A stretch of 64,000 nucleotides of DNA from Escherichia coli (lineage in GTDB: Bacteria > Pseudomonadota > Gammaproteobacteria > Enterobacterales > Enterobacteriaceae): the NCBI RefSeq assembly GCF_009931435.1, contig NZ_CP043414.1. One strand, written 5' to 3'. The notes beneath the pieces are model-generated. The model was not told the DNA's origin, searched no databases, and saw only the letters and a list, made by a program, of their open reading frames with translations. The position numbers were made by a program, and so were the translations under genes. This document shows positions 45,315-53,471 of this stretch, in pieces (positions within the stretch are counted from its first letter, which is position 1; each line of letters begins with the position of its first letter).

Positions 45315-46676
45315 ATGAAACTAAAGACCACATTGTTCGGCAATGTATATCAGTTTAAGGATGTAAAAGAGGTGCTGGCTAAAGCCAACGAACTGCGTTC
45401 GGGGGATGTGCTGGCGGGCGTTGCAGCGGCAAGCTCACAGGAGCGCGTGGCTGCAAAGCAGGTGTTGTCGGAAATGACCGTAGCGGACATCCGCAATAAT
45501 CCGGTGATTGCCTATGAAGATGACTGCGTGACGCGACTGATTCAGGACGACGTTAACGAAACGGCCTACAACCAGATTAAAAACTGGAGCATCAGCGAAC
45601 TGCGTGAGTATGTGCTGAGTGATGAAACCAGCGTTGACGACATTGCTTTTACCCGCAAAGGGCTGACCTCGGAAGTGGTCGCGGCGGTAGCGAAGATTTG
45701 CTCTAACGCGGACCTGATCTACGGCGCGAAGAAAATGCCGGTAATCAAAAAGGCCAATACAACTATTGGTATTCCGGGCACCTTCAGCGCCCGTTTGCAG
45801 CCAAACGATACCCGCGACGACGTGCAAAGTATCGCCGCGCAAATCTACGAAGGGCTTTCTTTCGGGGTGGGCGATGCGGTGATCGGCGTTAACCCGGTGA
45901 CTGACGACGTGGAAAACTTAAGCCGCGTGCTGGATACCATCTATGGCGTGATCGACAAATTCAACATTCCAACCCAGGGCTGCGTGCTGGCGCACGTCAC
46001 CACCCAGATCGAAGCGATTCGTCGCGGTGCGCCGGGCGGGCTGATTTTCCAGAGTATCTGCGGCAGTGAAAAAGGGCTGAAAGAGTTTGGCGTAGAGCTG
46101 GCGATGCTCGATGAAGCACGCGCAGTGGGCGCAGAGTTTAACCGTATCGCCGGGGAAAACTGCCTCTACTTCGAAACCGGGCAGGGTTCTGCGCTATCGG
46201 CGGGCGCTAACTTCGGTGCAGATCAGGTAACGATGGAAGCGCGTAACTACGGGCTGGCACGTCATTACGATCCGTTTATCGTCAACACCGTAGTGGGCTT
46301 TATTGGGCCAGAGTATCTCTACAACGACCGGCAGATTATCCGTGCGGGCTTAGAAGATCACTTTATGGGCAAACTGAGCGGCATTTCTATGGGCTGTGAC
46401 TGCTGCTACACCAACCACGCTAACGCTGACCAGAACCTCAACGAAAACCTGATGATCCTGCTCGCCACCGCAGGCTGCAACTACATCATGGGGATGCCGC
46501 TGGGCGATGACATCATGCTCAACTATCAGACTACGGCCTTCCACGACACCGCCACTGTGCGTCAGTTACTCAACCTGCGCCCGTCACCGGAGTTTGAACG
46601 CTGGCTGGAAAGCATGGGCATTATGGCAAACGGTCGCCTGACCAAACGGGCGGGCGATCCGTCACTGTTCTTCTGA
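45315..46676 (+). CDS. eutB: ethanolamine ammonia-lyase large subunit EutB
   Basis: 453-aa ORF starting 11 nt after the eutA stop. Confidence 0.95.
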   Translation: MKLKTTLFGNVYQFKDVKEVLAKANELRSGDVLAGVAAASSQERVAAKQVLSEMTVADIRNNPVIAYEDDCVTRLIQDDVNETAYNQIKNWSISELREYVLSDETSVDDIAFTRKGLTSEVVAAVAKICSNADLIYGAKKMPVIKKANTTIGIPGTFSARLQPNDTRDDVQSIAAQIYEGLSFGVGDAVIGVNPVTDDVENLSRVLDTIYGVIDKFNIPTQGCVLAHVTTQIEAIRRGAPGGLIFQSICGSEKGLKEFGVELAMLDEARAVGAEFNRIAGENCLYFETGQGSALSAGANFGADQVTMEARNYGLARHYDPFIVNTVVGFIGPEYLYNDRQIIRAGLEDHFMGKLSGISMGCDCCYTNHANADQNLNENLMILLATAGCNYIMGMPLGDDIMLNYQTTAFHDTATVRQLLNLRPSPEFERWLESMGIMANGRLTKRAGDPSLFF

Positions 46677-47593: not shown

Positions 47594-48253
47594 ATGCCAG
47601 CTTTAGATTTGATTCGACCGTCGGTAACCGCCATGCGGGTGATTGCCTCTGTTAACGCCGAATTTGCGCGTGAACTGAAATTGCCGCCGCATATTCGTAG
47701 CCTCGGGCTGATTTCTGCTGATTCCGATGACGTCACCTACATTGCGGCTGACGAAGCGACCAAGCAGGCGATGGTTGAAGTCGTGTATGGTCGCTCGCTG
47801 TATGCGGGAGCCGCACACGGCCCGTCACCGACTGCCGGTGAAGTGCTGATTATGCTCGGGGGGCCAAACCCGGCGGAAGTGCGTGCTGGTCTGGATGCGA
47901 TGGTTGCGCATATTGAAAATGGCGCGGCTTTCCAGTGGGCTAACGACGCGCAAGATACGGCATTCCTGGCACATGTAGTTTCGCGTACCGGTTCTTATCT
48001 CTCATCAACCGCCGGGATCACGCTTGGCGATCCGATGGCGTATTTGGTGGCACCGCCGCTGGAAGCGACCTACGGCATTGATGCAGCGTTGAAATCTGCC
48101 GACGTGCAGCTGGTGACCTATGTCCCGCCACCGTCTGAAACCAACTACTCGGCAGCATTTTTAACCGGTAGCCAGGCCGCGTGTAAAGCAGCCTGTAACG
48201 CCTTTACCGATGCAGTGCTGGAAATCGCGCGTAATCCAATCCAGCGTGCGTAA
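47594..48253 (+). CDS. eutL: ethanolamine microcompartment shell protein EutL (tandem BMC domain)
   Basis: 219-aa ORF. Confidence 0.95.
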
Positions 48254-48265
48254 CGGAGGTTGCCG

Positions 48266-48766
48266 ATGATCAATGCACTGGGATTGCTGGAAGTGGACGG
48301 CATGGTCGCCGCGATAGATGCAGCTGATGCCATGCTCAAAGCAGCTAACGTTCGTCTGCTCAGTCACGAAGTGCTTGACCCTGGTCGCCTAACGCTGGTG
48401 GTGGAAGGCGATCTGGCGGCGTGTCGTGCGGCGCTGGACGCAGGTTGTGCTGCCGCGATGCGTACCGGGCGTGTCATCAGCCGTAAGGAGATCGGTCGGC
48501 CAGACGATGACACCCAGTGGCTGGTTACTGGCTTTAACCGCCAGCCGAAGCAATCCGTAAAGGAACCCGACGCGCCAGTTATCGTCGCGGAATCTGCTGA
48601 CGAGTTGTTGGCGCTGTTAACATCAGTACGTCAGGGAATGACGGCAGGAGAAGTGGCTGCCCACTTTGGCTGGCCGCTGGAAAAAGCCAGAAATGCGCTC
48701 GAACAGCTCTTTTCTGCCGGGACGTTACGTAAACGCAGTAGTCGTTATCGTCTCAAGCCCCATTAA
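48266..48766 (+). CDS. eutK: ethanolamine microcompartment shell protein EutK (BMC domain plus C-terminal helix-turn-helix-like domain)
   Basis: ORF track 48260..48766; start at the third codon gives MINALGLLEVDGMVAAIDAADAMLKAA..., 166 aa. Confidence 0.9.
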   Translation: MINALGLLEVDGMVAAIDAADAMLKAANVRLLSHEVLDPGRLTLVVEGDLAACRAALDAGCAAAMRTGRVISRKEIGRPDDDTQWLVTGFNRQPKQSVKEPDAPVIVAESADELLALLTSVRQGMTAGEVAAHFGWPLEKARNALEQLFSAGTLRKRSSRYRLKPH

Positions 48767-48811
48767 CCTGTCGGAGGTGCCGGGTGTCCTACAACACCCG
48801 GCATTAACATC

Positions 48812-49864
48812 ATGAAAAAGACCCGTACAGCCAATTTGCACCATCTTTATCATGAACCCTTACCCGAAAACCTGAAGCTCACGCCGAAGGTCGAAGTGGA
48901 TAATGTTCATCAACGGCAAACAACGGATGTCTATGAACATGCTTTGACGATTACCGCCTGGCAGCAGATTTACGATCAGCTGCATCCGGGCAAGTTTCAT
49001 GGTGAATTTACGGAAATTCTACTCGATGATATTCAGGTTTTTCGTGAATACACCGGTCTGGCGCTGCGTCAGTCGTGCCTGGTCTGGCCGAACTCGTTCT
49101 GGTTTGGCATTCCGGCGACACGCGGTGAGCAGGGATTTATCGGTTCGCAATGTCTGGGAAGCGCAGAAATAGCGACGCGCCCTGGAGGAACCGAGTTTGA
49201 ATTAAGTACGCCGGACGATTACACGATCCTTGGCGTGGTGCTTTCTGAAGATGTCATCACCCGTCAGGCTAACTTTTTGCATAACCCGGAAAGGGTGCTG
49301 CATATGTTACGTAACCAGTCGGCGCTGGAAGTGAAAGAGCAGCATAAAGCCGCGCTGTGGGGCTTTGTCCAACAGGCTCTGGCGACATTTTGCGAGAACC
49401 CGGAAAATCTCCATCAGCCTGCAGTGCGAAAAGTGCTGGGGGATAATTTGCTAATGGCGATGGGGGCGATGCTGGAAGAAGCGCAGCCAATGGTGACGGC
49501 GGAAAGTATCAGCCACCAGAGTTACCGTCGCTTGTTGACCCGCGCGCGTGAATATGTGCTGGAGAATATGTCCGAACCGGTAACCGTGCTGGATTTGTGC
49601 AATCAACTGCATGTCAGCCGCCGCACGCTACAAAACGCGTTTCACGCTCTTTTAGGCATTGGCCCAAACGCGTGGCTGAAACGCATTCGCCTGAACGCCG
49701 TGCGCCGCGAACTGATAAGCCCGTGGTCGCAAAGTACAACGGTCAAAGATGCCGCCATGCAGTGGGGATTCTGGCATCTGGGGCAATTCGCCACGGATTA
49801 CCAGCAACTGTTTGCCGAGAAGCCGTCTCTGACGCTACATCAGCGGATGCAGGAACTGGAGTGA
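48812..49864 (+). CDS. eutR: AraC-family transcriptional activator of the eut operon EutR
   Basis: 350-aa ORF with C-terminal AraC-type helix-turn-helix. Confidence 0.9.
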
Positions 49865-49940
49865 GGGTGAGGGCCGGATGAGGATGGTGTTTGATCCGGT
49901 CCATAGTGAAGTTACAAATTACGTTGAATTGCTATGTATT

Positions 49941-50258
49941 TTATTGCCCAACGGGATAGGCGATAAACAAACCGACAATTGTCAGAATACACGCCAGCAG
50001 GAATACCAACATACAATTTACGCGCTTTCGCGAAATTTTAAATAAATAGCAAAATAGTGTTGTTACCACGATCACTACCGGGATAGTCATAAAATTAATA
50101 ACGATGAGTGCTATCAATCCAAAACTTGCTCCTCCACCGTGGGGAATAAAAATGTGTTCTTCAAAATAAACTTCTATAGCAAATGCCAGCACACATCCCA
50201 GAAAACTCATATCCAGATGAGGGTGCCATTTACTTTCTTTATTTGATGTGTCTGACAT
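49941..50258 (-). CDS. hypothetical small membrane protein (105 aa, three predicted transmembrane helices)
   Basis: ATG 50256-50258 with GGGAG Shine-Dalgarno about 9 nt upstream, TAA at 49941-49943; three hydrophobic stretches after a polar N-terminus; visibly AT-rich relative to its flanks; I do not recognise the protein. Confidence 0.6.
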   Translation of the reverse strand: MSDTSNKESKWHPHLDMSFLGCVLAFAIEVYFEEHIFIPHGGGASFGLIALIVINFMTIPVVIVVTTLFCYLFKISRKRVNCMLVFLLACILTIVGLFIAYPVGQ

Positions 50259-50298
50259 TCTTAAATGCTCCCGTGAGCAAACTGGCGCAAAATAATTT

Positions 50299-51561
50299 CT
50301 AAGATTGCTGATAAGACGTCGCTGTTGTCCGGCACTCCGGGCAGATAAACGCGTAAATTATCCCTTCGCCATATTGTTCAATATCGGCATAATCCAGTTG
50401 CGCAAGAAACATCATTGTGTGGGAACATTGCGGACAGAGAGGATATTCCGCGTCCTGAATCCAGGTTGGATGCCCGCCAAGTTGCGAGAAAGAGACAGGT
50501 AAAAATGGGTCTGCGGCAAATAACGGTGACCTAAGGTTTCCCTGTCTCATGCTGTTTACAGGGAGTCGACGCCATTCCGATACATCATCCGGCAGCTAGG
50601 CAGGCGGGATATTTTTTGCAGACAAATGAGCGTTACCCTTTGAGTCCATGTAGCCGAAAATGGTGCTGTAGGCGGTGCAACATTCGCAAGTCACGACGCG
50701 AAAACTGCCGTTATCGCTAAGACCCGTTGCCTTCAGGTCAACGTCGAAAAGATTTGTTAGGGGCAATGCGCACTTTGGACAGGTATCGCTGCGTTCATCA
50801 ACAACACGCAAAGCTTCGCAAGACCCGGTGCTTTTCATCTCCAGATGAAAACATTGAGGAAAATAGAGATTACGCCTTTGATCTTCAGCGGTTAACTCCC
50901 AACCGGCCTCATGCGCATATTCTTCTGGCGCGATGTAAAGTGAACTGCGCCACAGCGGCGGGTTATTGCGCCAGTAGGCAAAACGTTCAACAACAACGTC
51001 ATCCCCAATCCATGCCAGACATTGCAGAATACAATTTCTGTTTTCTGCATCATCCTCAACCCGTTCTAACAGCGTATCGCGAACATCCGCTGGGGCGCGG
51101 TGGAAAGGCAGAGGAGAATAAGCGTCTAAATCATCATAAGAGATCCACTCTCGTAAATATGCATCCAGATTTGCCTGGGTAAACGCCGCCAGACAAAGAC
51201 AAATCTCCTGAGCGTGTTCATATTCACCAGACGCAAAGCGTTCTGTGGCGTAATCAGCCATCAGCTGCGCTTGATCGGCGGTCAACTGTTGATACAGGGC
51301 ATCGGTGGGAGCGGGGCAGGGAGTCCAGTCGATTAACGCATCGAATTTCCGTGGCTGGTGAACTAATTTCAGCATGGCAATCGGATCGCTTAGCCCAGCA
51401 AACACATTCACGGTCTTTTTATTTTTCCTGATATATTCATCGTGCTCACGCTGCTGTTGTGCCTGAACGCAGGGCATACAGTATCCGTCAGTACGCGCAG
51501 CGGTTTCCGGAAGAATGGTTGATGTACAAGCGGGGCTTTTACAGGGAATACGGTGAGTCAT
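50299..51561 (-). pseudogene. Cys-rich multi-zinc-ribbon protein gene with tentatively DUF1963/YwqG-like C-terminus; 420-codon frame interrupted by one in-frame TAG at 50596-50598
   Basis: ORF track entries 50596..51561 (321 aa) and 50299..50550 (83 aa) are in the same frame; the 45 nt between them read through as LPDDVSEWRRLPVNS; AAGGAG Shine-Dalgarno 8 nt upstream of ATG 51561; Cys pairs CKSPAC..CMPC, CPKC..CECC and CPQC..CPEC. Confidence 0.6.
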
Positions 51562-51698
51562 AGAGGCGCTCCTTGCCTGAGGATATTAAGTCGAAAGAGA
51601 TTATTATTAGATATTAGGGTGTCACTATGGCACACAAATTAAACAGAATTAATTTCAAGCCACAAACATAGGGTTATTTTTCTTTTATTTTCATGATA

Positions 51699-52601
<903 letters not shown>

Positions 52602-53471
52602 TTACCGCTTTCTCGAGTGTGCTTTCTGGTTGTCAAACCAGTGGAAATAACTGATCACGCCTTCGGCAATGGCTGTGGCGATTTTCTGGCGAAATGCCGC
52701 CGTGCCTAACAGCCGCTCTTCTTCCGGGTTGGTGATAAAAGAAGTTTCCACCAGCACCGAAGGAACAGATGGCGATTTCAACACTACAAACGCGGCTTGT
52801 TCGGTGTTGCGACTGTGCAGCTTATGCACCGGCTTAATCTTCTTCAGAATATGTGAGCCGAGCGTCAGGCTGTTTTTAATAGTATCGGTTTGTACCAGAT
52901 CAAACAGCACTTGTTGCAATAGGTGATCCTTGTCAGTCGCTTTTTTACCGGCAACTTCATCAGCGCGGTTTTCGCGTTCAGACAAGTATTTCGCCATTGC
53001 GCTACTTGCGCCGCGGTTCGAGAGAGCAAATACCGAAGCACCGGCAGCTTTCGGGTTAGTAAAGCCGTCGGCGTGAATTGACATAAACAGGTCAGCGCCA
53101 TGTTTATGGGCGATTTCAACGCGATCGTACAGCGGGATAAACGTATCGCCAGAACGCGTTAAACGCGCATCAATGCCATGATTACGCAAAATGGAACGGA
53201 CGTTTTTGGCAATCGCCAGCACCACATGTTTTTCTTTCGATCCATTGCGACCAATCGCTCCGGTATCAATTCCGCCGTGGCCTGGATCGAGAACAACGAC
53301 ACGTTTGCCGCCGCTTTTTTTGGCTTTCGGCTTACTGTGTCCGTTACTGGTTTTTAAAGGTTCTTCTTTGGCGATGGCTTGCGACATTCCTGACAACGTC
53401 AGGGCAGCCAATCCGGCTTTCAGCACCTGGCGGCGCGAAGTGAGTGTTTTTAGTGGTTTAAAAGTGCTCAT
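52602..53471 (-). CDS. amiA: N-acetylmuramoyl-L-alanine amidase AmiA
   Basis: 289-aa ORF with twin-arginine signal TSRRQVLKAG. Confidence 0.95.
   Translation of the reverse strand: MSTFKPLKTLTSRRQVLKAGLAALTLSGMSQAIAKEEPLKTSNGHSKPKAKKSGGKRVVVLDPGHGGIDTGAIGRNGSKEKHVVLAIAKNVRSILRNHGIDARLTRSGDTFIPLYDRVEIAHKHGADLFMSIHADGFTNPKAAGASVFALSNRGASSAMAKYLSERENRADEVAGKKATDKDHLLQQVLFDLVQTDTIKNSLTLGSHILKKIKPVHKLHSRNTEQAAFVVLKSPSVPSVLVETSFITNPEEERLLGTAAFRQKIATAIAEGVISYFHWFDNQKAHSRKR

Follow-up and report, generated by a model that had tools for sequence, protein, structure and literature searches.

The window analysed here, a stretch of 64,000 nucleotides of Escherichia coli DNA (contig NZ_CP043414.1), carries eutL, eutK and eutR on the plus strand, followed on the minus strand by a 105-aa ORF, a split reading frame, hemF and amiA, and then by ypeA on the plus strand (Table 1). 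The 14 kb around the split frame are 97-98% identical to ordinary E. coli chromosomes. Translation of the minus strand from 51561 to 50299 gives a frame of 420 codons that begins with ATG (AAGGAG lies just upstream) and contains one internal stop only, so that the original prediction of a single in-frame amber codon splitting a 420-codon frame is borne out. The mechanical ORF list cuts this frame into a 321-aa ORF (50596..51561) and an 83-aa ORF (50299..50550), and the 15 codons past the internal stop do read through cleanly, as had been claimed (their translation is LPDDVSEWRRLPVNS). The terminal stop had also been singled out as TAG, the rarest stop in E. coli; it is indeed TAG, and there is nothing unusual in this (eight of the ten orthologues described below also end in TAG and the other two in TAA).

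Table 1. Features of the disrupted gene and its surroundings (positions are those of the window; domain assignments are predicted)
Feature	Coordinates	Strand	Remarks
eutL, eutK, eutR	47594-49864	+	
105-aa membrane ORF (Pfam PF26378, YpfK-like)	49941..50258	-	40 nt past the gene's stop; intact in the window
Disrupted gene, whole	50299..51561	-	420 codons; Zn-ribbon / alpha-solenoid / YwqG-TYPP (DUF1963-like); now most probably a nonsense pseudogene
Terminal stop of the 420-codon frame	50299-50301	-	TAG
Cut-off codons 323-420	50302..50595	-	inter-repeat linker and second TYPP repeat
CxxC...CxxC, C376/C379/C407/C410	50436..50332	-	second TYPP repeat
Q388	50400..50398	-	second TYPP repeat
GGHP motif, residues 362-365	50478..50467	-	second TYPP repeat
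Premature amber TAG, codon 322	50596..50598	-	ancestral TGG (Trp); mutated base 50597 (plus strand T, ancestral C)
Former Dcm site	50596..50600	.	plus strand CTAGG now, ancestrally CCAGG; inner methylated C is the mutated base
Still translatable, codons 1-321	50599..51561	-	Cys4 Zn-ribbon C7/C12/C28/C31; alpha-solenoid ~86-220; beta repeat 1 with C261/C264/C292/C295
hemF	52598..51699	-	
amiA	53471..52602	-	

In nine RefSeq loci the orthologue runs as one CDS (417-420 codons), which is annotated as 'DUF1963 domain-containing protein' and placed between hemF and eutR, and in most of them the same 105-aa ORF stands downstream. The split frame is the same gene as this annotated E. coli protein (WP_000149701.1; WP_000003978.1 of strain E2348/69), with which it shares the chromosomal position, the 420-codon length and the downstream YpfK-like ORF; nucleotide identity to the complete-genome orthologues is 91-98% over the 1,371-nt stretch searched. 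It differs from all compared orthologues in having TAG at codon 322, where the others have TGG and are intact. Alignment to intact orthologues had been proposed as the way to learn which sense codon occupies the amber position, and it gave a uniform answer, with TGG (Trp) in 10 of 10 E. coli orthologues (the nine RefSeq loci and one further assembly, L010). Among the E. coli loci compared, none had an orthologue that ends at the amber position and is followed by a separate conserved gene.

Outside E. coli, homologues of approximately 420-435 aa align end to end (Escherichia albertii, Citrobacter, Kluyvera, Salmonella, Klebsiella, Yokenella, Chitinimonas and Paenibacillus), and AlphaFold DB holds full-length homologues in further bacterial phyla. 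Comparison of the intact E. coli orthologues gives dN/dS values of 0.2-0.34 upstream of the stop position and 0.14-0.29 downstream of it. These low values on either side, together with the full-length orthologues, argue that the two parts both encode protein, belong to one gene and are under purifying selection, and the open frame past the stop reads as the orthologous continuation of the intact gene, not as a chance product.

Among 5,426 complete E. coli genomes, 28 have the gene; in each of these it is chromosomal and adjoins eutR, and no partial remnants of it were found elsewhere among the 5,426. The 105-aa ORF accompanies it in 25 of these 28 genomes, and the exact 105-aa protein occurs on 102 contigs. 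A consensus scan found no terminator-like site between the gene and the 105-aa ORF (the sole match lies inside the 105-aa ORF itself); a consensus scan for promoter-like sites on the minus strand, which is uninformative, also returned none. The YpfK-like ORF is a probable operon partner of the gene, judging from this arrangement. In Klebsiella the gene lies directly after hemF, again with a YpfK-like ORF, and the locus is therefore old in the Enterobacteriaceae, several of which keep the gene at this place behind hemF; it has been lost from most E. coli. The distant homologues (in Paenibacillus and three other assemblies) have no conserved neighbourhood, and neither NCBIfam nor PADLOC has a family for the gene or for the downstream ORF. 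The 105-aa ORF resembles a small multi-pass membrane protein, and in Escherichia and Klebsiella it hardly ever occurs without the DUF1963-like gene.

To describe the intact protein we used an AlphaFold2 model built on a 38-sequence family alignment (mean pLDDT 93.7, pTM 0.88). A short N-terminal unit carries C7, C12, C28 and C31, all invariant in the 38 sequences; residues ~86-220 are modelled as all-helical; residues 221-313 are beta-rich and carry the invariant C261, C264, C292 and C295; and residues 338-418 form a second beta-rich unit with GGHP (362-365), Q388 and C376/C379/C407/C410. Within this second unit G362, G363, P365 and Q388 are invariant in the 38 sequences, as are C376, C379 and C407, and C410 is kept in at least 90% of them. 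The three Cys clusters noticed in the conceptual product are thus present and kept across the family. Comparison of repeat 1 with repeat 2 by hhalign aligned the CxxC...CxxC units with each other (E 6.4e-4, probability 27.7%, 46 columns), which is no more than suggestive of an internal duplication; the two all-beta repeats of the model correspond to the YwqG-like (1PV5) fold. On the model, the intact protein is predicted to begin with a Cys4 zinc ribbon, to continue with an alpha-solenoid of the HEAT/ARM type and to end in a zinc-binding beta domain with two repeats (YwqG/TYPP, DUF1963 superfamily).

The TYPP superfamily of Burroughs and Aravind unites DUF1963/YwqG with eukaryotic TSR4/PDCD2, and its defining features are GGxP, a conserved Gln at the base of a pocket, CxxC pairs that occur sporadically, and a strand-swapped pair of duplicated beta repeats (PMC4275035). 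These defining features are present in the gene family of the window, the duplication tentatively so at the level of sequence. The match to the Pfam model of DUF1963 (PF09234) has an E value of 5.8e-5 (24.0 bits) and joins residues 359-406 to positions 1-51 only of the 216 in the model; across the 38 family members the same HMM gives E <= 0.001 in 18 and E <= 0.1 in 37, and the precomputed DUF1963 matches are flagged 'faint' or 'weak'. The likeness to DUF1963/YwqG that had been suggested therefore holds at the level of the superfamily (GGxP, Gln, CxxC) and fails as a claim of orthology to YwqG, because the architecture is longer: the kin are Bacillus subtilis YwqG (PDB 1pv5) and eukaryotic TSR4, PDCD2 and PDCD2L, and in the window's protein TYPP makes up only the C-terminal half (~221-420), whereas YwqG (261 aa) lacks the Zn-ribbon and the ~135-residue alpha-solenoid. 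No sequence match to any PDB chain was detectable, and Foldseek gave no significant match in the PDB. For TYPP domains a role in peptide or protein binding, chaperone-like or as an adaptor, has been proposed, with no evidence for a specific function of the bacterial members (PMC4275035), and by analogy such a peptide- or protein-binding adaptor role is the best functional hypothesis available for this gene.

The age of the amber codon can be judged from closely related loci. Compared with assembly L010, the gene of the window shows 22 differences, of which 21 fall in the first 300 nt; the remaining 960 nt differ only at the G to A change that makes the stop. This clustering looks like a recombination mosaic. 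Four sister loci (L011-L014) have the same gene sequence as the window save for one base, nt 965, which is G in the sisters and A in the window. Assemblies of such sisters include GCA_031233855.1, ERZ28587580 and ERR6140658. The surroundings are nearly as close, with 3 differences in 21,263 bp between L011 and the window and 2 in 11,301 bp between L014 and the window, and set against three near-identical sisters the window has only two private substitutions: 50597, which makes the amber codon, and 46422 (G to A). Downstream of the stop no further change has accumulated, whether the comparison is made with L010 or with the sister loci. The exact protein with Trp at position 322 restored is on record in public assemblies (P0136, 21 contigs; UniRef UPI000CF75D47); for the truncated 321-aa product an exact look-up among approximately 15 billion predicted proteins returned no record, and no further carriers of the amber allele were found via exact look-ups of the 321-aa and 83-aa products. 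Near-identical intact sisters and an unrecorded truncated product together argue that the mutation arose very recently and is confined to this strain or clone. The second private substitution (plus strand A) changes codon 370 of the eutB-like ORF at 45315-46676 from GAC (Asp) to AAC (Asn) in EutB; it too is a G:C to A:T transition, outside Dcm sites.

The sequence context of the change points to how it may have arisen. The ancestral coding-strand context is CCTGG, which corresponds to CCAGG on the plus strand at 50596-50600, a Dcm site; the window has CTAGG where the sisters have CCAGG, and the change of C to T at 50597 affects the inner C. Of the 171 single substitutions that could create a nonsense codon in the gene, three are of this Dcm inner-C type (3 of 42 if only G:C to A:T nonsense transitions are counted), and Dcm 5mC positions make up 0.5% of the bases in the 21-kb region, so that chance coincidence is unlikely. 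The allele resembles the Dcm-site amber hotspots that are countered by Vsr very-short-patch repair, in that a C to T change at the inner C of CCAGG makes a TAG; the classic case is reportedly that of the lacI amber hotspots at CCAGG in the work of Coulondre et al. from 1978. When C(5me)CWGG deaminates, the resulting CTWGG contains a T:G mismatch; Vsr normally corrects it, and C to T hotspots arise where this correction fails (PMC2715241). Dcm is common in E. coli (PMC6591954). Unlike at the known hotspots, deamination in the window is read from sequence context alone, and the most likely origin of the amber codon is a 5-methylcytosine that deaminated spontaneously to thymine and was missed by very-short-patch repair.

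We conclude, with a probability of approximately 0.85, that the split frame is a nonsense pseudogene, a loss-of-function allele that is specific to this strain and arose very recently in a rare accessory gene of the Enterobacteriaceae at the hemF-eutR position. Of the three explanations offered at the outset, the recent nonsense mutation is the one that fits: all orthologues have TGG, the W322 protein is on record, and the sisters differ from the window's gene only there. The only serious alternative is a sequencing or assembly artefact, in which the strain would really carry TGG and the consensus would have acquired the A by mistake, perhaps through a methylation-induced miscall at the Dcm motif of a long-read assembly. 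The substitution sits exactly in a CCWGG motif, the amber allele was found nowhere else on exact protein look-up, and in nanopore-only consensus sequences called with default models approximately 70% of the errors fall in Dcm motifs, of which polishing fixed approximately 70-80% (PMC6591954); because CCWGG is thus also a site of nanopore error, the Dcm context alone cannot tell mutation from artefact. What speaks for a mutation is the rest of the comparison. Over up to 21 kb there are only two window-specific positions relative to three near-identical sisters, with no homopolymer indels; only one of the 53 CCWGG sites covered by the comparison has changed, and an unpolished long-read assembly would not look like this; the substitution at 46422 lies off Dcm sites and indicates genuine private SNPs at about the same density; and the window is tiled by long ORFs without frameshifts. 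A sequencing error is therefore possible but unlikely, and less likely than a real mutation.

The readings in which the TAG does not abolish the gene appear weaker than either of these. A functional gene that relies on an amber suppressor tRNA or on leaky termination at UAG-C, maybe alongside a truncated isoform, would agree with the perfectly intact frame downstream of the stop and with the C that follows it (UAG followed by C is a comparatively weak termination context in E. coli). The intact frame is, however, fully explained by the recency of the mutation, wild-type E. coli shows little basal read-through, the 64-kb window contains no tRNA genes, and no Rfam element lies at the amber site (the only two matches in the window are naRNA4/REP elements elsewhere). 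Moreover, TAG at codon 322 is absent from every orthologue and sister locus compared, all of which encode Trp, and this lack of conservation leads us to set aside the suggestion of a gene that needs a suppressor, to which we attach only a very small probability. Recoding of the pyrrolysine type was considered and dismissed, because E. coli is not known to have a pyl system; nothing in the window points the other way, an Rfam element at the site and a tRNA in the window both being absent. That the allele is functionally consequential in another way, through a truncated product or low read-through with altered or regulated activity or because loss of the gene is adaptive, is very unlikely; the adaptive version would fit the fact that 99.5% of complete E. 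coli genomes lack the gene, as well as the shorter Salmonella and E. albertii entries described below. It is hardly credible, finally, that the split frame represents two real cistrons, namely the 321-aa ORF and an 83-aa ORF starting at the ATG at 50550, derived from a split ancestral gene and translated by re-initiation. An in-frame ATG (Met338) does occur 15 codons past the stop, and the 83-aa ORF would hold the entire conserved second repeat; against this, no split orthologue was found, the 83-aa product has no record on exact look-up, no Shine-Dalgarno sequence is recognisable upstream of the ATG at 50550, and in the published description the TYPP repeats exchange strands within a single chain (PMC4275035).

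Under the preferred reading, that of a recent nonsense mutation, a G:C to A:T transition (C to T on the plus strand at 50597) would have turned codon 322 from TGG into TAG. Codon 322 falls in the coil or linker between the two beta repeats of the AlphaFold2 model, and in the 38-sequence alignment Trp322 varies outside Escherichia (Y, L and others); the damage would therefore come from truncation and not from loss of the residue. The 98 codons cut off are the family's most conserved block, with 12 of its 31 invariant columns, including GGxP, the pocket Gln and the Cys4 site. The truncated product would keep the Zn-ribbon, the solenoid and repeat 1 and would lose repeat 2, and the TYPP domain could then probably not form, a half-domain being unlikely to fold because the repeats are described as strand-swapped (PMC4275035). 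The truncated product is most probably non-functional, which would make this a null or severely crippled allele, and the approximately 300 nt left untranslated may in addition lower expression of the downstream YpfK-like gene by polarity.

In kind the allele is not novel: it is an ordinary nonsense pseudogene of an already annotated accessory gene, and beyond annotation it matters little. In annotation the two ORFs belong together as a single pseudogene (internal stop) of the 'DUF1963 domain-containing protein' gene, and should be listed neither as two genes nor as a candidate for recoding. The strain of the window and its intact sisters form a natural near-isogenic pair for probing the function of the family, and the allele is a clean natural example of an amber codon at a Dcm CCWGG site, a handful of SNPs from its intact ancestor.

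Several minor observations concern the locus and its relatives. The hemF-eutR interval (49865-51698) is variable in E. coli, and the two-gene module is absent from most genomes. At this interval three of the loci (L002, L007 and L008) have a large SNF2-related gene, and another (L006) has an extra cassette with a TacA antitoxin and GNAT toxin-like pair; in two more (L005 and L009) the position of the YpfK-like ORF is taken by a hypothetical ORF of 221 aa, together with a T6SS immunity gene of the Tli3 family and TPR/SEL1 genes. We considered a role in anti-phage defence or polymorphic-toxin immunity and rejected it: there is no PADLOC or NCBIfam match, and the Tli3, TPR and toxin-antitoxin genes are alternative insertions at a variable locus. 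Shortened family entries of ~250-360 aa occur in AFDB50 for Salmonella (A0A379VMU0, A0A447TYH1 and A0A447JEN0) and E. albertii TW07627 (A0ABC9NQY3); these may be independent truncations or mis-called starts, and the gene may therefore decay repeatedly. On a 7.5-Mb contig of one distant genome, the homologue (L017:6330-7604) is directly followed by a HEAT-repeat protein of similar length (424 aa), which may be a paralogue or a partner.

Elsewhere in the window, the eut operon is uninterrupted, unlike that of one sister locus (L013:16436-21263, ERR6140658), which carries a phage-type integrase island directly behind eutB, at the place that eutA occupies in the window. The eutG-eutH spacer contains tandem 90-nt copies at 42459-42548 and 42559-42648 (94% identity, spaced 100 nt), and an Rfam match to naRNA4 (RF02564, a nucleoid-associated ncRNA) at 42515-42596 runs across the junction of these copies; a second naRNA4 match lies at 17691-17767.
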